64,000 bases of DNA from Candidatus Eiseniibacteriota bacterium (lineage in GTDB: Bacteria; Eisenbacteria; RBG-16-71-46), in assembly GCA_963717935.1 (NCBI GenBank), contig CAVQXP010000004.1, forward strand, positions 1,440,001-1,504,000, in the 5' to 3' direction. The stretch's first letter is position 1; each line of letters opens with the position of its first letter. The notes under the pieces are model-generated. The model worked only from the letters and a program-made list of their open reading frames with translations, made no database searches and was not told the origin of the DNA. Below are positions 3,261 to 60,080 of this stretch, one piece after another. A program made the translations under genes and the position numbers.

Positions 3261-4142
3261 CTATTCATCCCCCAGACGCACGACCAGAACCGAGCAGCGC
3301 GCCCGGCGCAGGACACCCTCGGCCACGCTTCCCAGCGCGAGCCTTCCGAGGCCCGACCGCCCGTGTGTCCCCGCTACGATGAGCTCCGCGCGAATCTCAT
3401 CGGCCACCCCGACGATGGCGTCGACGGGTGGATCCTCGCGCAGGATGATCCGCGCTGCGCCCCCGAAGCCCGACGCGATCTCCGCGAGGCGGTCACGAGC
3501 CTCATCGCGACGCGCTTCGGTCAGGCGGTCTATCAGCGACGGAGAGACGATCTCCGGGAGATCCAGGTTCACCGTTCGCAGATCCATCGAATGAACGATG
3601 ACGAAGGGGAGAGAGCGTCGCTGAGCCTCGTCGTGACCCCGGCGGACGGCCGGGAGAGAGGCGTCGGAGAAGTCCGTCGCCGAAAGGACCGCCCCGCCGC
3701 TTCCTGGAACCGCAACGAGCACGGGGCAGCGCGCGTGGCGCGCGATGCGCTCTGAAACGCCTCCGGCCTCATGCGCGTCCGACGGCGGACGGCGCCCGAG
3801 GACGATCAATCCAGCCCCCACCTCCTCCGCCGCCTGGAGCACCATCGTGTGCGGGGAGCCGGATTCGAGACGCATCTCGGGCTTCGGCGCGCCCGGCTCG
3901 AGCACGTGGTCGAGCTGCTGCTGGAGGAGGCCGGCCACCGACTGGCGAACCTTCTCGATCTCCACGCGATCATGAACACGGAGTTGCGGAAAGAGCGGCC
4001 GGATGCCGAACAGCTCCGGCAGCACATGGCAGATCACGAGGGGGACCGCCGCCTCCCGGGCGAAGAGAGCGCCCTGACGCACGGCCTCGTCGGATTCGCG
4101 GCCAAGATCCGAGGCCACCAGGATGGGTCCGGAGAATCTCAT
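3261..4142 (-). CDS. Tandem-domain universal stress protein
   Basis: ILVASD, LIVAGTHGRSGLGRLALGSVAEGVLRRARCSVLVV; two USP repeats. Confidence 0.9.
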   Translation of the reverse strand: MRFSGPILVASDLGRESDEAVRQGALFAREAAVPLVICHVLPELFGIRPLFPQLRVHDRVEIEKVRQSVAGLLQQQLDHVLEPGAPKPEMRLESGSPHTMVLQAAEEVGAGLIVLGRRPPSDAHEAGGVSERIARHARCPVLVAVPGSGGAVLSATDFSDASLPAVRRGHDEAQRRSLPFVIVHSMDLRTVNLDLPEIVSPSLIDRLTEARRDEARDRLAEIASGFGGAARIILREDPPVDAIVGVADEIRAELIVAGTHGRSGLGRLALGSVAEGVLRRARCSVLVVRLGDE

Positions 4143-4246
4143 CGTACGGTCCCTTCGCCCGCGCCGGGTCTGTGGTGGAGATGATCACTTCCTGCGCGCC
4201 ACGGGCGCGGAGGCACATCGACCAAACCCCTCATGCTGCCCATGCG

Positions 4247-4276
4247 ACTCTAGGTCGTCACCGGGAGCGCGGTCAA
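4247..4276 (-). promoter_or_regulatory. Putative sigma70 promoter of the USP gene
   Basis: TTGACC-18 nt-TAGAGT on the minus strand. Confidence 0.5.
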
Positions 4277-4368
4277 GATTCCGGCGGGCCGCGGGCGCGG
4301 TCCCCGCGACGTGCCGCCGCCTTCGGCTCGCGCAGACGGTGTGGCAGCCACTCGTGCCCCGGGTGGAC

Positions 4369-5619
4369 TCACTCCGGTGTCGGTGGCGCGGGCGCGGTTT
4401 CCCGGGCCGCGTTTTGGCGCCGACGCACGAGCGGGAAGCCGACGGCGAAGATCAGCACGGTCGTGAGCACGCAGGCGAAGACGACGGTCGATAGCTGATC
4501 CGTCCCCGGGACCCCGGCAGCGGCGGGGAGCGTCGCGAGGACCCCGGCGGCCATCCCGCGGGGAAGGGCGACCGCGATCAGGTCCCGCTCGTGGGAATCG
4601 AAGGTCCTGCCGAGCGTGACGAGACGCACCACCGGCACCCGGGCCAGGAGAAGCACGACCCCCAGCAGGACGCCCAGGGCCATCAGCCCCCACGGGGGCC
4701 CCAGCATCGCCCCGATGAAGGTGAAGAAGAACGACTTGATGATGAAGGCGATCTGGCCATGCACCCCGCGTACGTCCGCGCCCAGGTCCAACTCCGACTC
4801 CGACTCCATCCCGACCCGGGAGCAGATGACGCCCGCGTTCCCCACGATCACGGCGAACGCGAGGATGCCCAGCGCGGCGCTGCCGCCCACCTGCTGGACG
4901 AAGACGTACAGGACCAGCAGCGCCGACAGCGTGATCGGGTACGCGTGCCCGCGGGCGCGAAGCCATTTCAGGAGGAAGAGCCAGACCACTCCCCCCAGCG
5001 ACCCCGCGCCCAGCCCGATCCCGAAGGACCGCAGGAGGGCCGTGCCCGGCGACGCGGTGCCCGACGGGCCCGCCAGAATGACCTTGATGAGGGCCGTGGC
5101 TCCGACGACGCACAACGCGTCGGTGAAAGCCGACTCCAGATTGAGGAGGTTGCCCACCCGGGGCTCGACCTTGGCCTGGGCCATGGCGGGCATGATGACG
5201 ATCGAGCTCGAACCTCCCAGGATCGTGCCCAGCAGAAGCCCGTGCAGCCAGGTCCACGATCCGGGCAGCCAGCCGATTCCCCTGGCCCCCATGCTCACGA
5301 GCGTGACGGCCGCCACCGCCAGCAAGAAGGTCAGCAGGGCAAGCGCGCCGGAACGGGAAGCCGCCCGGGAGATCTCCCCGAGCCGGAGGCGGATGCCACC
5401 ATCGAACAGGATGACGACGAGCGTGAGGGCAGCGAAGTAGGGGGCGATCGTGACGAGGAGTTCCCGGTGCGCCGCGCCGCTCACGGGGCCGAGGAGGATG
5501 CCCACCACCATCAGCCACACGACGTCTGGAACGCCCGTGCGGCGGAAGAAGACTTCCCCGGCCACGCCGATCAGGAAGATGCCGGCGATCGTGAGCAGGA
5601 AGAGCGCAACGGGGCTCAT
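4369..5619 (-). CDS. Cation:proton antiporter (CPA1/NhaP-like)
   Basis: Polytopic hydrophobic protein with ILFDGG, LESAFTD, PRGMAAGVLA. Confidence 0.85.
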   Translation of the reverse strand: MSPVALFLLTIAGIFLIGVAGEVFFRRTGVPDVVWLMVVGILLGPVSGAAHRELLVTIAPYFAALTLVVILFDGGIRLRLGEISRAASRSGALALLTFLLAVAAVTLVSMGARGIGWLPGSWTWLHGLLLGTILGGSSSIVIMPAMAQAKVEPRVGNLLNLESAFTDALCVVGATALIKVILAGPSGTASPGTALLRSFGIGLGAGSLGGVVWLFLLKWLRARGHAYPITLSALLVLYVFVQQVGGSAALGILAFAVIVGNAGVICSRVGMESESELDLGADVRGVHGQIAFIIKSFFFTFIGAMLGPPWGLMALGVLLGVVLLLARVPVVRLVTLGRTFDSHERDLIAVALPRGMAAGVLATLPAAAGVPGTDQLSTVVFACVLTTVLIFAVGFPLVRRRQNAARETAPAPPTPE

Positions 5620-5821
5620 GGGAGGGTCACTCCGGAGATTGGTTGGATGCCCGGAGCCTGAACGCTGCCGAGGTCCGGGATGCGCACGGCCATGGCGCCC
5701 GGGCGTCCGGGGACGATGCCATCTTGGAAGTCAGCAGGCAAGAGTGTGGATCGGGCGGATGGCGCGAGCCCCGAGGACGGCCGCAGCCCGGGCGCTCGGG
5801 GGCTGCTCGCCGGTCACGTCC

Positions 5822-7048
5822 TCAGTCCCGCGGGTTTCGCCCTCCCGCCGGCTCCACCAGCGCCGCGTGCAGCGCACGCGCCGCGTCGGCGACGCGTTCG
5901 TTCGGCACGCGGAAGACGAGCGCGGCCGGGGAGACCCGCAGCGCGACGACGCGCACGTCCGCGCGCTCGAGTGCGCCTTCGGCCTGTGCGGCCTCGCGCG
6001 CGCCCAGGCCCAGCCCGACGACCGACACGTACGCCGTGCCGTGCTCGACACGCAGCACCCACTCGCCGCCGGGACCACGCAGGGCGTGGAAGCCCCGCTG
6101 CAGCGCCTCCACGTCCTCGCGGGACCCGATCCACTCCAGCGCGTGGTGCGCGTCCGCGGCGCCCTCGTGCGCCACCAGTTCCAACTCGGGGAACGCGTCC
6201 GCCACTGCCTCGATCAGGCCGCGGGCCACGCCACGCCCGCCCGCGTCGCCCTCGGCGATGGCGATCGAACAGTCGCCACGGTGCGCCACCGCCTCCATCC
6301 GGGGTCCTTCCATCTCGAACTCTCCGATCTCGGTACCAGGCGACTCGTCGAACGACGAACGCACCACGAGCGGCACGCGCTCGCGCGCCGCCAGGTCCAC
6401 GCAGCGCGCGTGCAGGACCCGTCCTCCCAGGTGGGCCAGGATCGAGCACGCGCGGTAATCGAGTCTCGGAATCACGCGGGCATCCGGCACCGCGCGCGGG
6501 TCCGCGCTGAAGATGCCGGGAACATCGGTGCAGATCTCGCAGCGCGCCCGGCCGAAGGCCGCGGCGAGCGCCACGGCGGTCGTGTCCGAGCCGCCGCGCC
6601 CGAGGGTGGTGATCTCCTTCGTGACGGGGTTCACGCCCTGGAAGCCGGCGACGATGACGACCTTGCCCTGCTCGAGTTCGCGGCGCAGCCGCTCCGGGCG
6701 CACGTCGATGATGCGCGCCGCCCCGTGACCGCTGTCGGTGAGGATGCCGCTCTGCGAGCCGGTGAAGGAGATGGCCGGGACGCCCAGATCTCCGAGCGCC
6801 ATGGCGAGCAGGGCCATGGTGACGCGCTCGCCGGTGGTGAGCAGCATGTCCAACTCGCGCCGGTTGGGGCTCGCGGAGACCTCGTGCGCGAGTCGCAGCA
6901 GCTCATCGGTGGTCTGGCCCATGGCCGAGACCACGACCAGCAGGTCGTTCCCCGCGGCGCGGGCCGAGGCGACCCGGCGCGCCACGTCGCGGATGCGCTC
7001 GGGGCCCTCGACCGAGGTGCCACCGTACTTCTGGACCAGGACGGCCAT
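5822..7048 (-). CDS. lysC: Aspartate kinase
   Basis: [44 protein letters not shown]-terminal ACT-like region. Confidence 0.9.
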
Positions 7049-7236
7049 GGGGGGAGTTATAAGCGTTCGCGGCTCCGAGCGCATCCCAGGGCGGGGTGGG
7101 AAGAGCGCATCGACGGCCAGAGAGCCGGGACGATGCTCGAGGCGGGCTCCGGGAGTGACCGTGGACGAGCGCATGGCGCCTCTGCTCGCCCACGGTCACT
7201 CCCGGAGCCCCGCGTCCCCGGCAGCCGCCCGCTGCC

Positions 7237-7266
7237 TTGACCTTGCCGCGCCCGGCTGGCTAGAAT
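7237..7266 (+). promoter_or_regulatory. Putative sigma70 promoter of tRNA-Gly
   Basis: TTGACC-18 nt-TAGAAT about 23 nt upstream of the tRNA. Confidence 0.6.
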
Positions 7267-7289
7267 GCTCCGCTCTTGAAAGTCCTTGA

Positions 7290-7366
7290 GCGGAAGTAGC
7301 TCAGCCCGGTAGAGCGCCACCTTGCCAAGGTGGATGTCGCGGGTTCGAATCCCGTCTTCCGCTCCA
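7290..7366 (+). tRNA. tRNA-Gly(GCC)
   Basis: Full cloverleaf: GCGGAAG/CTTCCGC acceptor stem, CCACC-TTGCCAA-GGTGG anticodon arm, GGTTCGAATCC T-loop, encoded CCA. Confidence 0.97.
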
Positions 7367-7459
7367 TTCTGTCGCGGGGCCGGCCGAGGCTCCGGCTTCC
7401 GGGATCGTCCGCCCCGGGGCCTGGCTCGGCCGGCCCCGTGGCTTTTCCGGGAGTCGCGC

Positions 7460-8146
7460 ATGGCCCCTCCTCGCAGGACGAAACCGGCCCCCCGGCGCCC
7501 GAAGACCGCACCCGCCCGCCGCGCCGGCGACCCGAAGGCTGCGCGGCAGGCCGTCGCGGAACTCATCCGGGCGCTCGGCCTCGACCCGGCCGTCGAGCCC
7601 GAACTCCTGGCGACCCCGGAGCGCGTCGCCGACCTCTACGCCGAGATCTTCGCGGGGCTTGATCCGGGCGCTGAGCCCCGGCCTGCGTCCTTCCCCGTGG
7701 CCGACGCGGGCCCCAGGGCCGGAAAGCGGAGCGACGACCTGGTCATCGTGCGCGATCTGCCCTTCTACTCGCTGTGCGTGCACCACTTCGTGCCGTTCTT
7801 CGGCCACGCGCACGTCGCCTATCTGCCCGGGGAGCGCCTGATCGGTCTCTCGGGCGTGGCGCGCATCCTCGAGTTCTACGCGCGCCGCCCGCAACTGCAG
7901 GAGCGCCTCACCGCGCAGGTCGCGGACCACCTCGCCCGGCTGCTCAAGCCCCGCGGCGTGGCGGTCGTCATCGAGGCGCGGCACCTCTGCATGGAGATGC
8001 GTGGCGTGCGCAAGACCGGCTGCTTCGAGACGCACGCCCTGCGCGGCGCACTGGCGAAGCCCGCGTGGGCGGGCGTGCTCGCCGCGGGTCGCGGGAAGGG
8101 GCGGCGGGGCTCGAGCCCGCGGCGGCTCCGCGGGCCCACCGAGTGA
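7460..8146 (+). CDS. folE: GTP cyclohydrolase I
   Basis: TPERVA, SLCVHHFVPF, IGLS, RPQLQERLT, HLCMEMRGV. Confidence 0.88.
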   Translation: MAPPRRTKPAPRRPKTAPARRAGDPKAARQAVAELIRALGLDPAVEPELLATPERVADLYAEIFAGLDPGAEPRPASFPVADAGPRAGKRSDDLVIVRDLPFYSLCVHHFVPFFGHAHVAYLPGERLIGLSGVARILEFYARRPQLQERLTAQVADHLARLLKPRGVAVVIEARHLCMEMRGVRKTGCFETHALRGALAKPAWAGVLAAGRGKGRRGSSPRRLRGPTE

Positions 8147-8895
8147 GCGGCACGGACGTCGACTTCCGCCGCATCTACGAGCGTCACGCGGGCGAGTACG
8201 ACGCGATGGTCGCCGCCGAGGATTGCGACGGCCGCCTCCTGCCTGCCCTCCAGTCCATCGTGCCGCTGGCCGGCGCCACGGTCCTCGAGGTGGGCGCCGG
8301 CACCGGACGCGTCACCCGGCTGCTGCTCGGCGCCGGCGCGCGGGTCGTCGCCAGCGAGCCCGCCCTGGCCATGCTGGCCGTGGCCCGGCGCCACACCGTG
8401 CAGCTGCCCGCCGCGCGCTGCGTGCTGCTCGGCGCCGATGCACTCGCGTTGCCGGTCCGGGCGGGCTGGGCGGATGTCGCGATCGCCGGGTGGGCGCTGG
8501 GGCACCTGCGCTCGTGGTGTGCCGGTACCTGGCGCGAGACGATCGCTCGGGCTCTCGCCGAGATGGACCGCGCAGTGCGTCCCGGCGGCACGCTCATCGT
8601 GATCGAGACGCTGGGCACGGGCGAAGATCATCCCCGGCCGCCCACGGCGGGGCTCGCGGAGTACTATGCGTGGCTCGAGGGCGTACAGGGCATGCAGAGC
8701 GCGGCGTTCCGCACCGACTATCGCTTCCCCGATCCCGAGGCTGCCGCCCGGGCGACGGGCTTCTTCTTCGGCGGGGAGTTCGCGGCTCGTGTCCTGCACG
8801 AGCGTTGGTCGCGCATCCCCGAGTGCACCGGCCTGTGGTGGCGGCGGAGCGGGTCCCGCCACGACCACGAACGTCCGTCCGACCCCGCGAGGTAA
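8143..8895 (+). CDS. Class I SAM-dependent methyltransferase
   Basis: VLEVGAGTG motif I; GTGA overlap with the folE stop. Confidence 0.85.
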   Translation: MSGTDVDFRRIYERHAGEYDAMVAAEDCDGRLLPALQSIVPLAGATVLEVGAGTGRVTRLLLGAGARVVASEPALAMLAVARRHTVQLPAARCVLLGADALALPVRAGWADVAIAGWALGHLRSWCAGTWRETIARALAEMDRAVRPGGTLIVIETLGTGEDHPRPPTAGLAEYYAWLEGVQGMQSAAFRTDYRFPDPEAAARATGFFFGGEFAARVLHERWSRIPECTGLWWRRSGSRHDHERPSDPAR

Positions 8896-8899
8896 GACC

Positions 8900-9904
8900 A
8901 TGACATTGCCTGTCCGTCCGCTTGGAGCGAGCGGGATGCGCATCAGCACCGTCGGCCTGGGCGCCTGGGCGATCGGGGGCGGGGGCTGGGCCTACGGCTG
9001 GGGGCCGCAGGACGACGCGGCCTCGCTCGCGACCATGAGGCGCGCTCTCGAGTCGGGTCTCAACTGGATCGACACCGCCGCCATCTACGGCCTCGGCCAT
9101 TCGGAAGAGGTGGTGGGCCGCTTCCTGCGCGATCTGCCACCGGGCGAGCGGCCGCTGGTCTTCACCAAGTGCGGCATGGCGTGGGACGAGCAGGACCGGA
9201 CGGCGGAGCCCCGGCGCACGCTCGAGCCCGCGTCCATCCGCGCCGAGTGCGAGGCGTCGCTGCGCCGGCTCGGCGTCGAGCGCATCGACCTGTACCAGTT
9301 CCACTGGCCCGACGACACGGGCACGGCGGTCGAGGACTCCTGGGCGGAGATGGTGCGGCTGGTCGCCGAGGGCAAGGTGCGCGCGGCCGGCGTGTCCAAC
9401 TTCGACATCGGACTGCTCGGGCGCTGCGAGGCGCTGCGGCACGTGGACTCGCTGCAACCGGGCTTCTCGATGATCCGCCGGGGCGTGGCCGCGCAGGAGA
9501 TCCCTTGGTGCGCCCGGCACGAGGCCGGTGTCATCTGCTACAGCCCGATGCAGTCCGGGCTGCTGACGGACGGCTTCGACGCGGCGCGCAACGCAGCATT
9601 GGCGCCCGACGATTGGCGCCGCCGCTCTCCCGACTTTCGGCCGCCCGCGCTGGAGCGCAACCTCGCGCTGCGGGACGCCCTGCGGCCCATCGCCCTGCGC
9701 TACCAGACCACGGTCGCCGCCGTGGCCGTGGCGTGGACACTCGCCTGGCCGGGCGTGAGCGGTGCCATCGTGGGCGCGCGCGCCCCGGAACAGATCGACG
9801 GCTGGCTGCGGGCGGCGAGCCTCGAGTTGACGACGGGGGACCTCGACGAGATCGCCGCGGCCATCTCCGCGAGCGGCGCGGGCTCGGGGCCGGTCAGACC
9901 CTGA
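8900..9904 (+). CDS. Aldo/keto reductase
   Basis: GLGAWAIGG, DTAAIYG, SLRRLGVERIDLYQFHWPD, GVSNF, YSPMQSGLL. Confidence 0.92.
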   Translation: MTLPVRPLGASGMRISTVGLGAWAIGGGGWAYGWGPQDDAASLATMRRALESGLNWIDTAAIYGLGHSEEVVGRFLRDLPPGERPLVFTKCGMAWDEQDRTAEPRRTLEPASIRAECEASLRRLGVERIDLYQFHWPDDTGTAVEDSWAEMVRLVAEGKVRAAGVSNFDIGLLGRCEALRHVDSLQPGFSMIRRGVAAQEIPWCARHEAGVICYSPMQSGLLTDGFDAARNAALAPDDWRRRSPDFRPPALERNLALRDALRPIALRYQTTVAAVAVAWTLAWPGVSGAIVGARAPEQIDGWLRAASLELTTGDLDEIAAAISASGAGSGPVRP

Positions 9905-9979
9905 GAGGGGGCGTGGCCCGGGCGATGGTGTCGCGCGACCGCGCGCCGCGTCCGGGGCGGCCCGCCGGGGCCGCTTCGC

Positions 9980-10750
9980 TCATTCCGGCGGCAGCGAGAC
10001 TCCCGGCGGGAGCTTCACGCCCAGGTGCTGGCCGCCGTCGAGCACGATCATCTGCCCGGTGAGGGCGGGTGAGCCCAGGATGAAGCGCACCGCGTCGCAG
10101 ATCTCCCCGGGCGTCGTGCCGCGCTTGAGCGGCGTCATCTCGCACTGGCGGACGAAGTCGGCCTCGGTCTGGCGCGGGCTCTTGAGAGCCGGTCCCGGTC
10201 CGATGGCGTTCACGCGGATGCGCGGCGCCAGCGCCAGCGCCAGCGAGCGGGTCAGCGTCCAGAGCCCGGTCTTGCTCACGGTGTACGAGACGAAGTAGGG
10301 CGTCAGGTTCCAGACGCGCTGGTCGAGCAGGTTGATGACGTTGCCCTCCTGGCCCACGGGCAACTGGCGCGCGAAGGCCTGCGTGAGCAGGAACGGCGCG
10401 CGCAGGTTGGTCTCGAGGTGTGCGTCCCACGAGGCGCGTGTCACGGTGTCGGCGAGGTCCAGCTCGAAGGTCGAGGCGTTGTTGACCAGGCAGGTGAGGG
10501 GGCCCAGCGCTTCGGCCGCCCGGGGCACCAGGGTCTCGGTCTCCGCCTCGCGGGCGAGGTCGGCCCGGACCAGCGCGGCGCGTCCGCCGTCCTGCTCGAT
10601 CCGGCCGACGACCTCGCGGGCCTCGGCCTCGGATTGGTTGCAGTGGACCGCCACTGCCCAGCCATGGCGAGCCAGGTCCAGTGCGATGGCGCGGCCGATG
10701 CGCCGCGCTGCGCCGGTGACGAGCGCGATCCTCGGGGACTCGGGACTCAT
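9980..10750 (-). CDS. SDR oxidoreductase, pteridine-reductase/FolM-like
   Basis: TGAARRIG, LVNNAS, YTVSK (YxxxK), IRVNAIGPG. Confidence 0.85.
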   Translation of the reverse strand: MSPESPRIALVTGAARRIGRAIALDLARHGWAVAVHCNQSEAEAREVVGRIEQDGGRAALVRADLAREAETETLVPRAAEALGPLTCLVNNASTFELDLADTVTRASWDAHLETNLRAPFLLTQAFARQLPVGQEGNVINLLDQRVWNLTPYFVSYTVSKTGLWTLTRSLALALAPRIRVNAIGPGPALKSPRQTEADFVRQCEMTPLKRGTTPGEICDAVRFILGSPALTGQMIVLDGGQHLGVKLPPGVSLPPE

Positions 10751-10758
10751 GCCCGGGC

Positions 10759-10787
10759 ATGATGCGGGAGGGAGGCGGGAGGTTCAA
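10759..10787 (-). promoter_or_regulatory. Putative promoter giving a (near-)leaderless SDR transcript
   Basis: TTGAAC-17 nt-CATCAT, 8 nt before the ATG; no SD. Confidence 0.45.
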
Positions 10788-10860
10788 GCGCAGCTTTCCG
10801 GTGACTTCCGCCCGCACCGGGGCGGATACTCCTCCACGACCCCGATCCCCGGAGGTGAGC

Positions 10861-12528
10861 ATGGACCGAGCCGTGAAGCCGTGCACGGGCATCCCCCTCA
10901 CGAACTATCGCCTCTACCGTGCGCGAAGTGTCCCGCGCACCTACCTCGTGATCTCGACCTATTTCGACCACGAGGGCCGGGCCGAGCAGCCCGGTCCGGC
11001 GGAGTTCGAGGAGCGGGGCGCGATGCAGGCGCTGCTCGCCGACCTCGAGGTGGCGCAGGGCGCGCCCGTGACGGAGCGCGCTCCGGCCCGGGGGCCCGCG
11101 GGGGCGCGCCGGCGCCGCGCACCGGTGACCCTGCGCACGCACGGCTTCAACGTCCGCCTCGGTGACTTCGCGCGCGACCTGCTGCTCGAGACGGCGGCCT
11201 CGCCGGGGGAGACCTTCCGGCCGGGCCGCCGCGTGCTCATCGGTTACCGCTGGCCGAGCGAGGGCGTGCTCTCGATGCGCTCGGCCCGCGATGTGGCGAA
11301 GGCCCTGTTCTTCACCGCCGCGGTGAGCGTGCTGCTCCTGCTGCTGCCGCTGCTGGCGCTCTCGCCGCCCGGGCACCAGTGGCTGGCGGGCGGTGCGGCC
11401 GGGCCCGCGGCGCAGGCGCTGCGGACGCTGTTGTGGCCCTACGCCTCGCGCGTGCTCGCGGCCGTGCTGTTCGGCGCGGGCGCGTCACTGCTCGCGCTGC
11501 GGCTCTCCACCTACCTGCGGGACCGCTACCGCGCGCTCCACTACGGCGTGCCCGACCTGTGCGAGTTCGTGCGCGACCTGGAGACCGGGCTCGAGGCCAC
11601 GGGCATCCGGGTGGCGCTCGACCTGGTGGGCCACAGCATGGGCTGCCTGACGCTCGTGAACGCGGTGCGCCTGATGACGGAGTTCTTCCACCGGCCCGGC
11701 GTCGAGAGCCGCTTCATCGGCTTCGGCCGTGCGATCGGACTGCGCACGCTGGTGCTCGCCGCACCCGACATCCCGGCGGCGCTCGCGAGCCCGGGGCGCA
11801 ACAACTACTTCCTCGCCTCGTTGAGGCGCTTCGCCGCGGTGCACGTCCTCTCGAGCGACCGGGACATCGTGCTCAAGTGGGCCTCGACCCTGGTCAACTG
11901 GGCCAGCGAGCCCCGTCACGACATGGCGGGCCGGCACCTCGGCAACGTCTTCCTGGCGCGCGCCGGGAGCGTGCCGCAGGGCGGGCACGAGACGCCTCAC
12001 GTCGGCGCCTACCTGCCCGTGCTGCGCCCGCAGGTGCGTGCCTTCCCGGTGCTCGATCCGAGGGCCCAGCGGACCGGGCAGCACCGGCTGGCGTGGGTCC
12101 ACTTTCACGACTGCAGCGTGTGCCCCAGCCTCGCGGCCGGCCGCGGCCGGCCCGTGGCGCTGAGTCTCGGCGTGCTCGCGGGCATCGTGGCGCTCCATCT
12201 GTGGATGGGCCTGGGCGTCACGCTCTGGGCGCTGGCGTGGGCCACGGCCCTGTTCGGCCTCGGGGCACTCGCGCGGTGGATCCCGGGCTGGCGCGACCGG
12301 TGGTGGCTCGGCCCGCTCGTCGGCATGCTCGCCGACTGGCCCTCGGTCGTCGGCTTCGGTCCGCACTCGAACCCGCACGGTGGCTACTTCGTCCCCGGGA
12401 GCGAGCCGCGCCGCCTGATCGCGCGCATCCTCCGGCATCCGGCGCGCCGGCCCGTGGCAGGGGAGGCGCCCGCGCTCGTGCGCACGGGCGGGCGCATCCG
12501 CACGAGCGCCGTGGCGCTGGAGGTGTAG
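10861..12528 (+). CDS. Alpha/beta hydrolase (DUF900-like) with membrane-helix insertions
   Basis: HGFN, GYRWPS, GHSMG nucleophile elbow, LAAPD, HGGYF; GGAGG SD before the ATG at 10861. Confidence 0.7.
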   Translation: MDRAVKPCTGIPLTNYRLYRARSVPRTYLVISTYFDHEGRAEQPGPAEFEERGAMQALLADLEVAQGAPVTERAPARGPAGARRRRAPVTLRTHGFNVRLGDFARDLLLETAASPGETFRPGRRVLIGYRWPSEGVLSMRSARDVAKALFFTAAVSVLLLLLPLLALSPPGHQWLAGGAAGPAAQALRTLLWPYASRVLAAVLFGAGASLLALRLSTYLRDRYRALHYGVPDLCEFVRDLETGLEATGIRVALDLVGHSMGCLTLVNAVRLMTEFFHRPGVESRFIGFGRAIGLRTLVLAAPDIPAALASPGRNNYFLASLRRFAAVHVLSSDRDIVLKWASTLVNWASEPRHDMAGRHLGNVFLARAGSVPQGGHETPHVGAYLPVLRPQVRAFPVLDPRAQRTGQHRLAWVHFHDCSVCPSLAAGRGRPVALSLGVLAGIVALHLWMGLGVTLWALAWATALFGLGALARWIPGWRDRWWLGPLVGMLADWPSVVGFGPHSNPHGGYFVPGSEPRRLIARILRHPARRPVAGEAPALVRTGGRIRTSAVALEV

Positions 12529-48983: not shown

Positions 48984-50445
48984 ACTCGCTCGTCACGAAC
49001 CTCGTGCGGCGCGTCGTTGCGGCGTGCATCGGGCTCGCGCTGGTCGTGGGAGCGGGGTTCGCCGCGGACGCGCCCCTCGACCGCACGAAGCCCCCGACGC
49101 TCGGCCCGCTCAAGCCGCTGAAGGTGCCCGTGGTGCAGACGCAGACGCTCGCCAACGGGCTCCAGTTGGCGGTCGTCGAGATGCACGAGGTCCCGGTCGT
49201 GGACTGCCTGCTGCTCGTGCGGGCCGGCGCGGCCTACGACCCGCAGGGGAGCCCCGGGCTCGCCACCTTCGTCGCGGGCATGCTCGACGAGGGCGCCGGC
49301 AAGCGCAGCGCGCTGGAGATCTCCGAGGAGGCCGACTACCTCGGGCGCGCAGTTCGGCACGGGCGCCGGGATGGAGAACGCGCAGATCGAGCCTGCACGT
49401 TCCCAGGGCGCGCCTGGAGGCGGCGCTCGACCTGATGGCCGACGTCGCACTGCGGCCGGCGTTCCCCGATTCGGAGATCGCCCGGCAGCGGGAGCTCCGG
49501 AAGAACAGCATCCTCCAGCTGCGCGACCAGCCCACGGCCATGGCGCCCCTCGCGCTCCATGCCATCCTCTTCGGTGCGGCGCACCCGTACGGACACTCGC
49601 AGGTGGGGAACGAAGCCTCGACGGCGGCGCTGGACCGCGCCCGGGTCACGCGCTTCTACGAGACCCATTACCGCCCGGCGAACGCGAAGCTCCTGTTCGT
49701 GGGGGACATCACCCCGGCCGAGGCCCGGAAGCTCGCCGAGGCCCGCTTCGGCGGCTGGTCGAAGGGCGAAGCGCCAGCCCCGCGGACGGGCGTCGTCGCG
49801 CCGCCGGCCGGACGCACGTTCTACCTCGTGGACAAGCCGGGGGCGCCGCAGTCGGTCATCATGATCGGCAACGTCGGCGTGCCGCGCTCCACGCCGGACT
49901 ACTATGCGTTGCGGGTGATGAACAACCTCCTGGGAGGGTCGTTCACCTCGCGGCTCATGCAGAACCTGCGCGAGCTGCACGGCTACACCTACGGTGCGCG
50001 CTCGTACTTCGACATGTACCAGCAGGCCGGGCCGTTCCGCGCCGCGTCCTCGGTGCACACGGCGAAGACCGACAGCGCGCTGATCGAGTTCTTCCGGGAG
50101 TTGCGCCGCATCCGCGACGAACCGGTGCCGGCGGAGGAACTGGCCAAGTCGAAGGCCTACATCGCGCTCGGTCTGCCGGGCGAGTTCGAGACCACGCAGG
50201 GGGCGGCCGGCCGGTTCCTCGACCTGCTCGCCTACGATCTCCCGCTGGATTCCTACGACTCGTTCATCGAGCGGATCCAGGCCGTGACGGCCGAGGACGT
50301 GCAGCGGGTGGCGAGGCAGTACATAACCCCGGACCAGTTCACGGTGGTGGTGGTGGGCGATCGCAGCCAGATCGAGGCCCCCATCAAGGCCCTGAACGAG
50401 GGGCCGGTCGAGCTGCGCGACCTGTGGGGGCAGCCGGCGCAGTAG
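48980..50445 (+). CDS. M16B peptidase partner subunit, exported; two apparent +1 indels (~49344, ~49389)
   Basis: Signal peptide, LANGL, no HxxEH, HPYG, GGSFTSRLMQNLRELHGYTYG; ATGA overlap with the upstream gene. Confidence 0.85.
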
Positions 50446-50453
50446 CGCGTCGA

Positions 50454-50536
50454 GGACCGCGGAGCGCAGACGCGCCGTGGTGGCCGAGCGCATGGTGCCT
50501 CTGCTCGGCCACTACGGTGCGCGAGCCCCGCGGTCC
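50454..50536 (+). other. Long intergenic hairpin after the M16 pair
   Basis: 18-bp inner stem 50472-50489/50503-50520 (two G-U pairs) within GGACCGCGG/CCGCGGTCC. Confidence 0.55.
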
Positions 50537-50621
50537 GGGCGCTCGCAGGGAAGACGACGGCCCGGGATACCCAGACGCTCGCTGCCCGGGTCCCGTGCGC
50601 CGTCACCAGAAGCCAGAGCGT

Positions 50622-50662
50622 GGCCCCGTAGCTCGGATGGATAGAGCAGCGGTTTCCTGACC
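50622..50662 (+). pseudogene. tRNA-Arg(CCT) 5' half (no T-arm or 3' acceptor strand)
   Basis: GGCCCCG-TA-GCTC-GGATGGATA-GAGC-A-GCGGT-TTCCT, after which similarity is lost. Confidence 0.65.
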
Positions 50663-50693
50663 ATGGGCTGAGGCGGCCGCCTCCCGGACGCAC

Positions 50694-50725
50694 GAAGGCC
50701 CCGCGGCGCCAGCCGCAGGGCCTTT
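50694..50725 (-). terminator. Hairpin downstream of kbl
   Basis: AAGGCCC.GCGGC-loop-GCCGC.GGGCCTT. Confidence 0.35.
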
Positions 50726-50743
50726 GCGCAATGACCGCCCCCG

Positions 50744-51991
50744 CTACATCCCGTACTTCTCGATGATCTGCTGCTTGTTGAGTCCCAGGATGCCGTACTT
50801 GGCGCCGACCTTCTTGAACGCCGCGATGCCCTTGTCGAGGTGGTGCTGCTCGTGCGCGGCCGAGAGCTGCGTGCGGATGCGCGCCTGCGCCTTCGCCACG
50901 ACCGGGAAGAAGAAGCCGACGACGTAGATGCCCTCGGCGAACAGGTCGCGTGCCACGTCCTGCGCCAGCTTGGCGTTGTAGAGCATCACCGGCACGATCG
51001 GGCTCTCGCCCTTCTTGATGTCGAAACCGGCCTCGGTGAGGAGCTTGCGCCAGTAGGTGGTGTTCCACTCGAGCTTGTCGCGCCGCTCGGTGGTGGCCGA
51101 GATCAGGTCCAGCACCTTGAGCGCGCCCTCGACGATGACCGGTGCCACGGTGTTCGAGAACAGGTAGGGCCGCGCCCGCTGGCGGCACATCTCCACCAGC
51201 TCGCGCCGTCCGCTCACGCAGCCGCCGGAGGCCCCGCCGAGGGCCTTGCCGAGCGTGGTGGTGATGATGTCGATCCGGCCGACCACGCCGCAGTGCTCGT
51301 GCGTGCCGCGGCCGGTCTTCCCGATGAAGCCCGAGGAGTGCGAGTCGTCCACGAACACCATGGCGTCGTACTTCTCGGCCAGCGCGACGATCCCGTCGAG
51401 CTTGGCGATGTCGCCGTCCATCGAGAAGACGCCGTCGGTGATGATCATGCGGAAGCGCTTGTCCTGGTGCTCGACGAGCTTCTCCTCGAGGTGGCCCAGG
51501 TCGGAGTGCTTGTAGGTGTCCTGCATCGCCTTGCACAGCCGCATGCCGTCCACGATCGAGGCGTGCACGAGGCGGTCGGAGATCATCACGTCCTGATCGC
51601 CCAGGATGGCCTCGAACACGCCGGCGTTGGCGTCCATGCAGGAGGGGAAGAGCAGCGTGTCCTCCGTGCCGAGGAACGCGGTCAGCTTCTGCTCCAGCTC
51701 GCGGTGGATGTCCTGGGTGCCGCAGATGAAGCGCACCGACGACATGCCGTAGCCGCGGTGGTCGAGCCCCTTGTGCGCGGCCGCCACGACCTCGGGGTGA
51801 CTCGAGAGGCCGAGGTAGTTGTTCGCGCACAGGTTGATGACCTTGTGGCCGCCGCTGCCGACCGGGAACTCGACCTCGATGTCGGCGCCCTGCGGCGAGT
51901 GGATGAAGCGCTCCTCCTTGAACAAACCCTGCTCGCGGAGGCCTTTCAGCTCGGTCTGGTAGTGCTCGCGGACCCTGTCGGCATAACCCAT
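50744..51991 (-). CDS. kbl: Glycine C-acetyltransferase (2-amino-3-ketobutyrate CoA ligase), alpha-oxoamine synthase family
   Basis: CANNYLG, MSSVRFICGTQDIH, SCMDAN, HASIVDG, FSMDG, TLGKALGGASGG, RQRARPYLFSN, ARIRTQLSA. Confidence 0.9.
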   Translation of the reverse strand: MGYADRVREHYQTELKGLREQGLFKEERFIHSPQGADIEVEFPVGSGGHKVINLCANNYLGLSSHPEVVAAAHKGLDHRGYGMSSVRFICGTQDIHRELEQKLTAFLGTEDTLLFPSCMDANAGVFEAILGDQDVMISDRLVHASIVDGMRLCKAMQDTYKHSDLGHLEEKLVEHQDKRFRMIITDGVFSMDGDIAKLDGIVALAEKYDAMVFVDDSHSSGFIGKTGRGTHEHCGVVGRIDIITTTLGKALGGASGGCVSGRRELVEMCRQRARPYLFSNTVAPVIVEGALKVLDLISATTERRDKLEWNTTYWRKLLTEAGFDIKKGESPIVPVMLYNAKLAQDVARDLFAEGIYVVGFFFPVVAKAQARIRTQLSAAHEQHHLDKGIAAFKKVGAKYGILGLNKQQIIEKYGM

Positions 51992-51994
51992 GGC

Positions 51995-52249
51995 TCAGCC
52001 CTTCTGCTGGAAGCGGGTGACCAGCGCGGCGATGCTGTTGACGTTGTCGAAGGCCTGCGGGCTGGCGTCGGCGTCGGGGATCTTGATGCTGAACTTGCGC
52101 TCGAGGAAGCGCTTGAGCGAGACCATCGAGAAGGAGTCCACGATGCCGCCGGTGATGAGCGGTGAGGCCTCGTTGATGACGCGGTCGTCATCCTCCTCGA
52201 GGTACTCCTTCTTCACGTAGTCGAGGATCAGCTGCTTGAGCTCGTCCAT
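51995..52249 (-). CDS. Acyl carrier protein
   Basis: 84-aa acidic protein; GIVDSFSMV phosphopantetheine-attachment Ser. Confidence 0.9.
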   Translation of the reverse strand: MDELKQLILDYVKKEYLEEDDDRVINEASPLITGGIVDSFSMVSLKRFLERKFSIKIPDADASPQAFDNVNSIAALVTRFQQKG

Positions 52250-55723: not shown

Positions 55724-58480
55724 TCAGTGCCCGCGCAGGTCCTCGAGCAGCTCGCGCTCGACCGCCGGCAGCTGGTGCACGGGCTGCCACGTGGCGATGC
55801 TCGCGCGGAAGGTCCACTCGGGGGGCGCGCGGTTCGCGATGCGCTCCCGGACCGGCGCCCACGCGGCGGCGGCGGCCGCCGCGTTCCCGGCGCGCTGCTC
55901 GGCGCCGCCCAGCACGATGCGCGCGAGGTCCGACCACGGGCCCCACTCCAGCGCCCGCCCGGCGTGCGACCGCGCGGCCGCGACCTCTCCGGTCCGCAGC
56001 GCGAGCAGTCCGCGCAGCGCCTCGGCGGTCGGATCGCCTTCGTCGAGCAGTCTCGCCTCGTCGAGTTGTCCACGGGCCGCGTCGGGCCGCCCCGCGCGCA
56101 GCAGGTCGAAGGCGTAGTCGCAGCGCAGGTCCACCACGCCGGTGCGCAGCCGCACGGCCTTGTCGTACTCCGCGAAGGCATCGTCCCAACGTCCTGCCAG
56201 AGCCAGACTTGAGGCGCGGGCCCGCAGCCCCTCCGGGCTGTCGGACTGGCGCGCGAGAACCGAGTCGGCCGCCGCCAGCGCCGCGGCCGCGTCTCCACGG
56301 ACCCACGCCAGGCGCGCGATCTCGAGGTCCACGAGACGACGGTCGTCGTCGCGCACGTCGGAGCGCATCTTCGCGGCCAGCGCGAGCGCGGAGTCGAGCC
56401 CGCGGCCCCCGTGCCAGGTGGCTTCGGCCGCCTCCGCCACGATGGCACCGCTGGCCGGCAGGGTTGCGAGCGCCCGGTCGGCGGCGGCCAGCATCTCGGG
56501 GCCGCGGTTGCCAAGGTCGAGCGCGCGCGTGAGTGACAGCAACGCGTACTCCTCGTCGGACTTCAGGGTCAGTGCCCTCTGGTAGAAGGGCACGGCCTGG
56601 TCCACCTCGCCGCGCCAGAGGCGATCGTCACCCGCGTTGACGTAAGCCACCGGGTAGCTCGCGTTCACGTCGGTCAGGGCCATGAGCCGCTCGACGAGCG
56701 CCTTCAAGTCGGCGTCCTTGCGCTCGAGCCGGCTGAGCACCTCGGGGCGCGGGTCGTAGGCGTCGCGATCCACGGAGAGCAGGGCATTGGCCCCTTCGGC
56801 GAGGTACTCCTCCACGGCGACGGCGGCGTAGCGGGAGATGAACGCATCGTGGGTCACCTCGTCGCGCGCCTTCGTCCTGCGATAGAGGTCCTGGATCTCC
56901 CGGGACTGGTCCGCCGTGAGCACCGCATGAACCTGGTGGGTCAGCTCGTGCAGGACGGTGTTGTACCTGGCGAAGATCGTCGCCTCGACGTCCTCGATGC
57001 CCGTGACCGTGTGGTAGCCGCCCGAGCCGCGCACGTCGTCCCAGAGGCGCGAGTCGTAGCTGATGCGCTGGTCCTTGAGCGTCTCCTGTCCCGGGACCTC
57101 CGAGAGCAGCATGTACATGGGCTTGATGTAGAAGTCGGCTCCGCCCGCGAGCAGCACGGGGATGAACCGCTGCCAGGGCGCGATGGACAGGGCCACGCGC
57201 TTCTGGTGGCGCGGTGAGAGCGACTTCCAGTTCACGACGAAGCGCTCGATGCCCGCCACCTCGGGCACGGGCGCGGCGGCCAGTCGCGCCTCGTAGCCGG
57301 GGCGGTGCACGTCCACGTCGAAGCGCTGGAACTGGAGCGCCTTGGCGAGGATGGCGTGGCCGCGGCCGTACTCGGGGCAGATGTGGAGCGCCGCGAAACA
57401 CCGGTCGCGCGCGGCGTCGAAGCGGCCGTCCTCGAAGTCGAGCGAAGCCAGCCGCGCGAGCGGGTCCACCCAGCCGGGATGCGCACGGCACACGGCCTCG
57501 TACGCGACGCGCGCGCCGGGGCGGTCGCCGGCGCCGAGCAGGCTGTCGGCGCGGGCCAGCACGCGTCGTCCGGCCGCGTCCGCGAAGGCGTGCGGGTAGG
57601 CGGCGTACAGTTGCGTGTAGTTCCTGCGCACGGTGTAGCCGTTTCCCCGGAGGTAGTGCGCCATGTCGGAGTAGGGGTTCAGCAGGGTGCCCCACTCGGC
57701 CGCGCTGATCGCCTCGTCGGTGCGCCCGACCCGCAGCAGCGCCTGAGCCAGGACCGTCATGGCGTCGCCGCAGGCGTTCGCCCCGACCGCCCTGAGCGCG
57801 GCGGCGAGCGCGCCGTCCCAATCCCGACGCCCGAACCTCACCTGCGTGAGCCCGATCAGGGCCGTGTCGCGGGCGGCTTGGACGTAGCGGCGCCCGGCGG
57901 CCTGCTTCGGCTGCGGTTGTCCGGTGCGCTCGAGCGCGCGGGAGTAGCAGGACTCGGCCCGCGCGAACCGCATCAGACCGCAGGCCAGGCGGCCCGCGGC
58001 GAGCAGGTCGGGGATGCTGGCGTGTTCGGCGGGCGTGGTGAGCGCGCCGCGGGTCAGCGAGTCCACTCGCGCCACGTCGTCGTGCGCGAAGAGCCAGGCG
58101 AGGACGGCCTCGCGCTCTTCCTGGGTCGGATCCGGCTGCGCGGCGATGTTCGCGAACAGCGGCGCGGCGGTGACGAAGTCCTGGCGGGCGAGGAGTGCGC
58201 GCGCCTTCACCACCGTCTCCTCGCGCGCCTCGCCCGTGAGGCGCGGCAGCGATCGGCACGCCTCGTCGATCCTGCCCGTGGCGAGAAGCAGCCGGAGCCG
58301 CCCGGGCGTCACGGGGCCCCTGGCCTGCGTCTCGAGCTGCGCGAGCCGCGCCCGGTACTGCGCCGCCACCGGCGCGAAGAGCCCGGTGTCCGCGGGGGCC
58401 TGGGCCCGCGCGTTCGCGGAAAGCGGGAGTGCCGCGGCAGTGCACATGGCCACGGTGCCGCACAGCAACGCGATCCTCAT
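55724..58480 (-). CDS. Exported TPR protein with central HExxH zinc-peptidase domain (~918 aa)
   Basis: Signal peptide ending ARA, TPR-like Ala-rich repeats, WDDVRGSGG, NTVLHELTHQVH, EEYLAEG. Confidence 0.75.
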   Translation of the reverse strand: MRIALLCGTVAMCTAAALPLSANARAQAPADTGLFAPVAAQYRARLAQLETQARGPVTPGRLRLLLATGRIDEACRSLPRLTGEAREETVVKARALLARQDFVTAAPLFANIAAQPDPTQEEREAVLAWLFAHDDVARVDSLTRGALTTPAEHASIPDLLAAGRLACGLMRFARAESCYSRALERTGQPQPKQAAGRRYVQAARDTALIGLTQVRFGRRDWDGALAAALRAVGANACGDAMTVLAQALLRVGRTDEAISAAEWGTLLNPYSDMAHYLRGNGYTVRRNYTQLYAAYPHAFADAAGRRVLARADSLLGAGDRPGARVAYEAVCRAHPGWVDPLARLASLDFEDGRFDAARDRCFAALHICPEYGRGHAILAKALQFQRFDVDVHRPGYEARLAAAPVPEVAGIERFVVNWKSLSPRHQKRVALSIAPWQRFIPVLLAGGADFYIKPMYMLLSEVPGQETLKDQRISYDSRLWDDVRGSGGYHTVTGIEDVEATIFARYNTVLHELTHQVHAVLTADQSREIQDLYRRTKARDEVTHDAFISRYAAVAVEEYLAEGANALLSVDRDAYDPRPEVLSRLERKDADLKALVERLMALTDVNASYPVAYVNAGDDRLWRGEVDQAVPFYQRALTLKSDEEYALLSLTRALDLGNRGPEMLAAADRALATLPASGAIVAEAAEATWHGGRGLDSALALAAKMRSDVRDDDRRLVDLEIARLAWVRGDAAAALAAADSVLARQSDSPEGLRARASSLALAGRWDDAFAEYDKAVRLRTGVVDLRCDYAFDLLRAGRPDAARGQLDEARLLDEGDPTAEALRGLLALRTGEVAAARSHAGRALEWGPWSDLARIVLGGAEQRAGNAAAAAAAWAPVRERIANRAPPEWTFRASIATWQPVHQLPAVERELLEDLRGH

Positions 58481-58627
58481 GACGGTTCCCTCGGGGTGGG
58501 CGTTCCGGGTGTCCCGGCGCGACGGCGCCAATCTAGGCGCGCGTCCCGGACAGCGTCAACGGGCACGGGGCGCCCGTCCCTCGAAGCGCGGCGCTCGTGG
58601 TTTCCGTGGCCGCCGGGCCGGGCGCTC

Positions 58628-58636
58628 TGCTAGTCT
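58628..58636 (+). promoter_or_regulatory. Extended -10 element of the thioredoxin-TPR gene
   Basis: TG-C-TAGTCT, 7 nt before ATG 58644; no SD. Confidence 0.45.
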
Positions 58637-58643
58637 GCCGGAC

Positions 58644-60023
58644 ATGAAATCCTCTCTGCGTGCAGTCCCGTTGCTGGTGCTGGCCTGCGCGCTCGCGGCC
58701 TCGTCCGCGAGCCCGGCCCGCGCAGCCGCCGGCTCGAAGCCGGCCCGGAACGCCGCCGCTGGACCGCGGATGGTGCTGCCCTTCGTCCAGGACGACTACA
58801 CGCGGGCGCTCGCCGAGGCGCGTGCCCGCAAGGTGCCGCTCTTCATCGAAGCCTGGGCGCCCTGGTGACACACCTGCCGGTCGATGAGGGCCTTCGTCTT
58901 CACCGATAGGTCCCTCACGCGGCACGCCGGGCGGTTCGTCTGGCTCGAGATCGACATCGAGAAGAAGCAGAACGCGGCCCTGCGCAAGCAGCTCGGGGTC
59001 GTGGCACTGCCCACCTACTTCGTCATGGACCCGGCCAGCGAGCGGGTGGCGCTGCGCTGGGTGGGTGGCTTCACCGTCGCGCAGCTGGACCGGCTCCTCG
59101 AGGACGGTGTCGCGGCGGTCCGCGACCGGGCGACGACGAGCGGCCCGGGGGCGGCGCTCGCGCGGGCCGACCGTGCCTACGGTGAAGGTGAGGACAGCCT
59201 GGCGGTCCTCGCGTACCGCGAGGCGCTGGCCCAGGCCCCGCCGGGCTGGCCGCAGTACTCCCGGGTGGTCGAGGCGCTGCTCTTCGCGCTCGATCGCACC
59301 GGGGACTACGCGGCGGAGGCGGAACTCGCTCGCGAGGCCTACCCGCGGCTCAGGGGAACGGCATCGGGCGCGACGGTGGCGGGGAGCGGGCTGGGTGCGG
59401 CGCTCTCGTTGCCCGACTCCGCGCCGGAGCGCGGAGTCCTCGTCGGCGCGTTCGAGGCCGGGGTCCGCGAGGTGCTCGCGGACACGGCGCTGGGCATCGC
59501 GGCCGACGACCGGTCGGGCCTCTACATCGCCCTGCTCGATGCCCGCCAGAACGCGAAGGACGAGGAGGGGGCGAAGCGCGTCGCGACGGAGTGGTCCGCG
59601 TTCCTCGACGGCGCGGCCGCCCGCGCGAAGACCCCCGAGCAGCGCACGGTGTTCGATTCGCACCGGCTCTCGGCCTATCGCGAGCTGGGCCAGACCGAGC
59701 GCGCGATCCCGATGCTGGAGGCCTCCGAGCGGGATCTGCCCGGGGACTACAATCCGCCGGCTCGGCTCGCCGCGGCCTACCTGTGGATGAAGCGCTGGGA
59801 CGAGGCTCTGGCCCCTTCGGACCGGGCGCTGGCGAAGGCCTACGGGCCGCGCAAGCTCGGCATCTACTCGACCCGTGCGGACATCTTGAGCGGCAAGGGA
59901 GACCGGGAGTCGGCGCGCAAGACGCTCGAGGAGGCGATCGCCTACGCGAGCGCTCTTCCGCCCGGGCAGCGCTCGGAGAGCGCGATCGCGGGGCTCAAGA
60001 AGAAGCTCGAAGCGCTGAAGTAG
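58644..60023 (+). CDS. Exported thioredoxin-fold/TPR protein, probable selenoprotein (UxxC; TGA at 58866-58868; 459 aa)
   Basis: Signal peptide; FIEAWAPW-TGA-HTCRSM continues in frame into ORF 58884-60023; cis-Pro loop ALPTY; SECIS-like hairpin follows. Confidence 0.85.
58873..58910 (+). promoter_or_regulatory. Putative bacterial SECIS element
   Basis: CCUG/UAGG, CGGU/ACCG and GAUGAG/UUCGUC stems; apical loop GGCC begins 20 nt after the UGA. Confidence 0.65.
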
Positions 60024-60080
60024 CCGTCGTTCGCATCGCAAGGACGCTCTGCGGCCGCCCCTCGACGGGCGGCCGCAGCG

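Follow-up and report, generated by a model that had tools for sequence, protein, structure and literature searches.

According to the main text of a 2026 inventory (PMC13188914), prokaryotic selenoproteins fall into 119 families. In the thioredoxin-fold families with a UxxC motif listed in its Table 1 (PF00085, PF13098, DsbA-like and DsbG-like), selenocysteine (Sec, U) takes the first position of a CxxC-type motif, homologues with cysteine (Cys) exist, several members are extracytoplasmic by name, and decoding is by selA, selB, selD and tRNA-Sec. The same source already catalogues a TonB-dependent receptor and an outer-membrane beta-barrel family as extracytoplasmic selenoproteins, and export as such is therefore not new. 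Here, we analyze a gene of this general kind in a window of 64,000 nucleotides (the whole stretch of DNA that was analyzed; positions 1,440,001 to 1,504,000 of contig CAVQXP010000004.1, assembly GCA_963717935.1) from a Candidatus Eiseniibacteriota bacterium. The gene lies at 58644..60023 of the window on the forward (+) strand, as do all features given below unless stated otherwise, and consists of 459 codons and a TAG stop (60021-60023), with one internal TGA (58866..58868) read through as U. Unlike the catalogued UxxC families, its product joins the Pfam domain PF13899 to approximately 290 residues of tetratricopeptide repeats (TPR) and carries the motif W-U-H-[TS]-C. Our conclusion is that this is very probably one gene for an exported thiol-disulfide oxidoreductase of approximately 430 residues in its mature form, with Sec as the attacking residue; we propose a short hairpin (HP2) as the selenocysteine insertion sequence (SECIS) and a longer hairpin (HP1) as a spacer.

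The interrupted gene and its protein

The internal TGA almost certainly encodes Sec at the active site, to judge from translation, from the orthologous loci and from the alignment of the sequence with solved structures. Namely, with TGA read as U, it is the only internal stop in the frame of 58644-60023, it falls at codon 75 in the context FIEAWAPW-U-HTCRSM, and it takes the first position of U-H-T-C. The mechanical list of open reading frames (ORFs) breaks the gene at this codon, with one ORF stopping at 58868 and another, of 379 amino acids, opening at ATG 58884, and the public protein collection holds for this contig an entry identical to that 379-residue truncated product (P0002). A sequence-only reading of the window had anticipated much of this. 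In particular, it had seen that the ORF track splits a single frame here, which translation and the ORF list confirm; it had placed the TGA at the first Cys of a thioredoxin W-C-x-x-C motif, in agreement with the alignments given below; and it had supposed the protein to be hidden from standard annotation, as the truncated public record bears out. Its proposal of an exported, Sec-dependent protein with a thioredoxin fold and a TPR-like domain is strongly supported by the pairing of Sec and Cys forms, the decoding machinery, a fold predicted as a single chain, purifying selection and the assembly of a relative.

Related genomes contain both of the things that this reading had suggested looking for, namely WCHTC homologues and further genes with TGA at this codon. 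We searched 61 related genomes (the one studied here included) with the read-through protein and obtained a match in 49. Among the first 30 loci read from the DNA, 24 encode Sec (W-U-H-[TS]-C) and six encode Cys (W-C-H-T-C), and 15 further orthologues add 12 Sec and three Cys forms. In other words, of 45 orthologous loci, 36 have TGA in one and the same column, and the remaining nine have Cys there. These DNA-level counts leave out pieces in genomes G007 and G011 and one match in G046, and one of the Cys forms (L042) comes from a genome, G038, that is flagged as unpublished. All three distant paralogues, which are approximately 37% identical, are Sec forms as well, each with W-U-Y-S-C. A separate search for related loci returned 3 Sec and 42 Cys forms, and this ratio was discarded as biased because the first search pattern itself contains Cys.

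A broader view of the family is offered by an exhaustive search of 1.84 billion cluster representatives, which gave 498 clusters at E <= 1e-30. Of the best 150 of these 498 representatives, 90 are full-length with WCxxC (54 with WCHTC and 26 with WCHSC), and approximately 46 start exactly at the Met that lies six codons after U, whose codon is conserved. The latter are probably truncated calls of Sec forms, a label that comes from the truncation itself. On a FastTree tree of 124 representatives (82 Cys and 42 such presumed Sec forms), at least 17 changes between Sec and Cys are needed, as compared to 33-38 when the labels are shuffled. In the alignment of 119 full-length members, W74, C/U75, C78, P123 and P366 are invariant and H76 is present in at least 90%. 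Members appear in public records under the labels Candidatus Eisenbacteria, Thermoanaerobaculia or Acidobacteriota. Two cluster representatives, P0173 and P0247, lack the CxxC motif and show, for example, W-S-H or W-D-H-S-G in its place; these may be redox-dead versions that keep the TPR domain.

Could the TGA be an error of sequencing? At most 0.21 of the sampled words were recovered in any one public run, and the public material consists of contigs throughout. A contig from an RNA library (X3, record 12) covers 58651-58962 with 14 differences, none of them at the TGA; over 58860-58955, a DNA contig (X4, record 19) matches the gene without any difference; and a 7.3-kb contig (X1) covers the whole gene. 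The RNA-library contig may derive from DNA within that library, and these contigs are no proof of transcription. This material includes an independent assembly of a close relative that retains the TGA. A one-off sequencing error is ruled out by the public contigs together with the 36 Sec orthologues. What is more, the part of the gene downstream of the TGA is under purifying selection: over 384 ungapped codons, the ratio of nonsynonymous to synonymous substitution rates (dN/dS) is 0.28-0.47 against six same-genus genes, and 0.28-0.31 against the two closest relatives.

The protein itself is modular. Residues 1-27 (58644..58724) resemble a signal peptide, as the sequence-only reading had noted: they begin with a charged stretch and continue with a hydrophobic core, and A-R-A precedes residue 28. 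A hydrophobic N-terminal segment is found in 29 of 30 relatives, in Sec and Cys forms alike, and there is no lipobox, since Cys15 is not conserved. These N-terminal features suggest that the protein is exported. Residues 48-160 (58785..59123) form a thioredoxin-fold domain, which matches the Pfam model Thioredoxin_7 (PF13899) over residues 49-130 with 45.7 bits against a cut-off of 27. Residues 167-457 (59142..60014) form a TPR-like helical-repeat domain, in which the Pfam TPR models fall on residues 347-434: TPR_19 reaches 25.6 bits (cut-off 25), TPR_12 comes to 29.4, just below its 30.1, and other TPR models stay just short of theirs. AlphaFold2, given an alignment of 119 sequences, models the protein as a single chain across the TGA with a predicted local distance difference test score (pLDDT) of 93.2 and a predicted template modelling score of 0.88. 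In this model, residues 1-22 have a pLDDT below 50, the thioredoxin domain has its beta-alpha pattern at a pLDDT above 95, and residues 167-457 make up 17 helices, in keeping with the helical repeats that had been read from the sequence. In alignments with solved structures, U75 falls on the first Cys of the motif, which reads WCGPC in 2kuc and WCVAC in the gamma domain of DsbD, and P123 is, by its position, probably the cis-Pro of thioredoxins. The best matches in Foldseek are TPR superhelices (8chy, LGN), with E of approximately 1e-5 and a template modelling (TM) score on the target of approximately 0.5.

Taken together, these features allow one to picture how the protein could work. After export of the Sec (general secretion) type, U75 and C78 would exchange a selenylsulfide with the cysteines of envelope proteins, the TPR domain would hold a client or a partner, and DsbD would keep the protein reduced. 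The genome encodes a complete DsbD (DsbD_N, DsbD_TM and Thioredoxin_7, at C4:411102-413300), which is a possible source of electrons.

The RNA downstream of the TGA

For bacterial SECIS elements (bSECIS), the consensus model in the legend to Fig. 2 of PMC13188914 prescribes a loop of 3-9 nt on a stem of 4-16 bp with a G in the first two loop positions, a distance of 16-37 nt from the UGA to the loop and a minimum free energy (MFE) of at most -7.5 kcal/mol; in E. coli, the upper stem-loop lies 11 nt from the UGA (PMC8659212). Downstream of the TGA in this gene, the element most tightly linked to it is HP2 (58926..58944), an 8-bp stem closed by a GTT triloop (58934-58936), which was identified by pair counts and by folding and which folds on its own with -11.2 kcal/mol and a pair probability of approximately 0.75. 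HP2 does not figure in the sequence-only reading. All eight pairs form in 37 of 39 Sec forms and in only one of nine Cys forms, the latter presumably a recent convert from the same genus. The GTT loop is present in 39/39 Sec and 5/9 Cys forms, and the Val codon in the 3' arm is GTC in 37/39 Sec forms as opposed to GTG in 8/9 Cys forms. The encoded peptide, A-G-R/Q-F-V/A-W-L, is fixed in the Sec forms (four variants), with seven variants among the nine Cys forms, and four of six changes from CGG to CAG in Sec forms are paired with a change from TTC to TTT on the opposite arm. Finally, the mean energy of the region is -13.0 kcal/mol in Sec forms (n=36) as compared to -6.6 kcal/mol in Cys forms (n=9).

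Between the TGA and HP2 lies HP1 (58875..58924), a long hairpin directly 3' of the UGA, which rests on MFE folding and on covariation and which we propose to be a structured spacer. Its MFE is -24.5 kcal/mol with a z-score of -3.0, and taken alone it folds with -23.8 kcal/mol and pair probabilities of 0.95-0.99. The mean energy of the HP1 region is -26.0 kcal/mol in Sec forms (n=36) and -16.2 kcal/mol in Cys forms (n=9), and when the 63 nt past the codon are compared with resampled synonymous codons, the median z-score is -1.58 for Sec forms (n=24) and -0.25 for Cys forms (n=6). Over 37 Sec sequences, paralogues included, compensatory changes occur in five of ten core pairs, and the HP1 of the paralogues is built from different letters. 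In the same 37 sequences, the covariation score is 0.142, as compared to 0.102 for shuffled alignments (a level of 0.142 was reached by one of 500 shuffles), and slid partners gave no more than 0.081. The apical loop varies in sequence, and the predicted fold has no G in its first two positions.

How would these two hairpins direct the insertion of Sec? HP2 would be the element bound by SelB, being a G-first triloop on a GC-rich stem, and HP1 would be a folded spacer that brings HP2 near the UGA; with HP1 folded, only six bases (58869-58874) and one base (58925) remain unpaired between the UGA and HP2. HP2 is like a canonical bSECIS in its three-nucleotide loop starting with G-U, its 8-bp stem and its energy, and it differs in that its loop lies 65 nt after the UGA, with a conserved 50-nt hairpin in the gap. 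A useful comparison is provided by selD. Namely, the Sec forms of selD in relatives always carry a triloop hairpin, GGTCC-GGN-GGACC, 17 nt past their UGA, the Cys forms of selD do not, and this hairpin has the same shape as HP2. Since the selD of relatives carries this canonical hairpin, the SelB of the lineage evidently binds G-first triloops. We give about an even chance to a SECIS in two parts, that is, to an ordinary SelB-binding hairpin that lies 65 nt past the UGA, roughly double the accepted maximum, and that a conserved spacer hairpin returns to the ribosome. If true, such an arrangement would stretch the accepted rule on the distance between UGA and SECIS, would explain why a family of secreted selenoproteins that is widespread in soil bacteria escapes SECIS predictors and annotation pipelines, and would widen the search space for bacterial selenoproteins.

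That said, several observations weigh against the arrangement. As far as the consensus model is concerned, HP2, at 65 nt (58869-58933), falls outside the prescribed 16-37 nt, although it agrees with the model in loop, stem and G (GTT on 8 bp) and, like HP1, lies well within the limit on energy. HP1 has the prescribed spacing, and could thus be the SECIS. As for the covariation in HP1, RNAalifold found no consensus beyond a trivial 3-pair stem in the first 24 Sec sequences, and with a fixed register in the 24 closest sequences, 82.1% of cells were paired as compared to 81.2% after shuffling, with 66 of 500 shuffles as high. The HP1 signal emerged only once 12 more orthologues and three paralogues had joined, and related sequences can outscore shuffles without any structure. 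Separately, a search of the genome for HP2-like motifs gave seven strict matches; among these, the four others that have a TGA at most 110 nt upstream were read, and none of the four stands behind a coding in-frame TGA.

It is possible, if somewhat improbable, that HP1 is the SECIS by itself. It starts 6 nt past the UGA and has its apical loop approximately 30 nt downstream, within the range of 16-37 nt, and HP2 would then be kept for some other purpose, such as ribosome pausing or mRNA stability. This is a serious rival to the two-part SECIS, which is itself something that we infer: HP1 is the most stable element, it is much weaker in the Cys forms, and half of its core pairs show compensatory changes. 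Against it, the apical loop is variable and without G in its first two positions, contrary to the rule of the model, and it is in HP2 that synonymous sites do not vary among the Sec forms, in contrast to the Cys forms, and HP2 that resembles the SECIS of selD.

Selenocysteine machinery, further alternatives and surroundings

Does this bacterium decode UGA as Sec? Its genome (3.02 Mb in five contigs, 71% GC) contains all four components that the sequence-only reading had called for, each over its cut-off: a tRNA-Sec (71.3 bits; ARAGORN reports SeC with anticodon tca), selA (526 bits), selB (308 bits) and selD (339 bits), of which the last two have one frame break each. selD adjoins the tRNA-Sec gene and is itself a Sec form, C-S-G-U-A-S-K. 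A naive scan of the genome for an in-frame TGA near Cys gave 4,069 matches and is useless at 71% GC. A filter on GC by codon position left 66 candidates, of which only the gene studied here looked like a selenoprotein; selD was missed by this filter because of its frame break. There is no formate dehydrogenase of the Sec type over the cut-off in this genome, and none of the four other Thioredoxin_7 genes in it contains a stop. The selenoprotein genes found are thus two, this one and selD, in a scan that was not exhaustive; if this number holds, the gene may be a main reason why the lineage keeps its Sec machinery. Across the related genomes, selA is over the cut-off in 53 of 61, those with a Cys form of this gene included, and the choice between Sec and Cys is therefore specific to this gene. 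As a side observation, the selD of relatives (L115-L144) switches between Sec and Cys independently of the thioredoxin-TPR gene, and several genomes of family f3 combine a Cys form of selD with a Sec form of the latter.

Several points concerning the machinery and the surroundings speak against Sec decoding or lend it no help. Among the 61 related genomes, the Cys forms of this gene do not go together with a loss of selA. Conversely, selA was not found in four genomes that have the TGA form, namely G001 (96% complete), G016 (94%), G002 (54%) and G049 (53%). In the genome under study, selD has one extra base with respect to its same-genus orthologue, approximately 60 nt past its UGA (the region is C4 ~1909310-1909430, with the break at ~1909370), which leaves its body in another frame, and the C-terminal end of selB (C4 ~50300-52160, minus strand, with the break at ~50400-50500) is in another frame as well. 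Three genomes of the same genus encode selB in one continuous frame of 639-648 aa, and rpoB and rpoC are intact on the same contig as the two breaks. Because of these breaks, decoding in this particular organism is not assured. Lastly, the gene neighbourhood is kept only within the genus, and the neighbours give no functional hint.

The breaks in selD and selB reflect either assembly error or a recent decay of the Sec system. Were it the latter, with both genes truly frameshifted, the TGA would terminate translation, and the gene would be a very recent pseudogene of a true selenoprotein family. This we regard as unlikely. The extra base in selD, the displaced end of selB, as opposed to its single frame in the three same-genus genomes, and the unbroken rpoB and rpoC on the same contig all speak for it. 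On the other hand, the 384 codons past the TGA contain neither a stop nor a gap, with the low dN/dS against the two closest relatives given above, and HP1, HP2, selA and tRNA-Sec are all intact. Moreover, assemblies often contain isolated insertions and deletions, and in the present one heavily frame-broken copies of rpoB and rpoC lie on another contig. That contig, C3 (120,818 bases), has the second rpoB and rpoC at approximately 3367-11010 with several stops and changes of frame and, at 64% GC, lower than the rest, seems to be either of low quality or foreign to the bin.

The sequence-only reading had proposed a different SECIS, a short stem with a GGCC loop (58883..58898, with arms 58883-58888 and 58893-58898), and this part of it did not hold up. 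On paper, the stem is possible: its loop starts 20 nt past the UGA on 6 bp, in agreement with the model on loop, first G and spacing, and the two AGG codons noted at the outset (58887-58889 and 58908-58910) are indeed present in hairpin stems. Folding and pair counts did not favour it. Namely, its energy alone is -3.1 kcal/mol, above the limit of -7.5 kcal/mol, and its probability in context is approximately zero because the much stronger HP1 uses the same bases. Folding and covariation thus speak for HP1 and HP2 as the RNA linked to Sec, and against the GGCC-loop stem. One could still imagine that the stem forms transiently, as the ribosome melts the base of HP1, and is then bound by SelB. 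In its favour, 87.3% of cells are paired over the 37 sequences, and 19 of 36 Sec orthologues form the full set of six pairs; only one pair, though, shows a compensatory change, and the conserved peptide M-R-A-F-V leaves the bases little freedom to vary. We consider this reading quite improbable. Finally, it is hardly credible that the TGA is an ordinary stop that separates two genes, one for an exported peptide of 74 residues and one, with its start at ATG 58884, for a cytoplasmic TPR protein of 379 residues. The gene callers have it this way, and the conserved Met codon past the TGA might suggest it. However, the TGA lies inside the thioredoxin fold, which a stop there would sever at the active site, the Cys forms are continuous, the TGA column is kept in the great majority of orthologues and in every paralogue, and the hairpins linked to Sec would have no reason to exist.

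As for the surroundings of the gene, its neighbours are a divergent gene for a TPR protein of 935 aa, a convergent gene for an EamA transporter, a hypothetical protein and an M24 peptidase. The divergent neighbour (55724-58531, minus strand) is TPR-rich, has a signal-peptide-like start and adjoins the gene only within the genus; its H-E-L-T-H resembles the metalloprotease motif HExxH, and Pfam finds only TPR repeats in it. Upstream of the gene, within 58628-58646, lies TG-n-TAGTCT, a motif like an extended -10 element (hexamer 58631-58636) that ends 7 nt upstream of ATG 58644 and leaves no room for a ribosome-binding site. TGnTAnnnT strings stand likewise directly upstream of the start codon in many orthologues (16 nt upstream were inspected), and a promoter scan that requires a -35 match did not call the motif. 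A -10-like motif abutting the start codon suggests a leaderless mRNA. The gap that separates the stop of the gene from the end of the convergent EamA gene contains an inverted repeat at 60049-60078, with a perfect stem of 12 bp and a loop of 6 nt, which the terminator scan did not call because it has no T-run.

Comparison with known systems

Is the family already known under some other name? The words TPR, tetratricopeptide, PF13899, DUF255, Acidobacteri-, periplasm and signal peptide are absent from the main text of the inventory (PMC13188914), and in this sense the family was not found there. No model in NCBIfam release 20 is reached by the protein: TsoB (NF045694) gives 30.7 bits against a cut-off of 805 and WAxxUGC (NF041054) gives 12.7 against 300. 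The entry 'thiol:disulfide interchange protein' (PF13098) likewise stays below its cut-off, with 23.4 bits against 27. We found no literature on selenoproteins in Eisenbacteria or on bacterial thioredoxin-like tetratricopeptide selenoproteins, outside the supplements of the surveys, which could hold the family under another name; the main text of the deep-Sep paper, its supplements aside, does not contain the words TPR or thioredoxin.

Among the catalogued families, the Trx7/PDZ selenoprotein NF041199 (PMC13188914, in its main text) is alike in that a Thioredoxin_7-type domain is fused to a protein-binding module. It differs in having Sec last in the motif (CxxU) and a PDZ domain as the partner, and it gives no match to this protein at E <=0.1. 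In terms of sequence, the closest solved structures are the gamma domain of DsbD (1uc7, 2fwe; E 1e-7) and a 'putative disulphide-isomerase' from Bacteroides (2kuc; E 4e-10). The protein differs from DsbD in lacking its membrane and N-terminal domains, and the DsbD of this genome is encoded by a separate gene. In terms of architecture, CnoX/YbbN of E. coli and Salmonella (3qou, 3qdn) has the same order of thioredoxin and TPR, and Foldseek aligns it over approximately 417-421 columns with E of approximately 5e-5. CnoX acts as a 'chaperedoxin', and the logic that we propose for the present protein is alike, with a redox domain beside a TPR domain that would bind clients. The arrangement of the domains is different, though, since the TM scores are only 0.20 and 0.31 and the root mean square deviation is approximately 25 A, and the present protein has a signal-peptide-like N-terminus and U-x-x-C. 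Membership in the chaperedoxins was accordingly rejected on the TM scores and the N-terminus, and none was found at the level of sequence.

What do these comparisons mean? In databases, the members of a family that is common among uncultured bacteria of soil and sediment are systematically cut short, and because of this truncation their thioredoxin domain, their signal peptide and their dependence on selenium are invisible there. With its 17 or more inferred switches between Sec and Cys, the family is well suited as a natural experiment on the conditions under which an extracytoplasmic redox enzyme profits from selenium. As compared to the systems described so far, the gene encodes a genuine selenoprotein whose kind is known, with a thioredoxin fold and a UxxC motif, from a family that we did not find catalogued and with an RNA arrangement that lies outside the accepted spacing rule.

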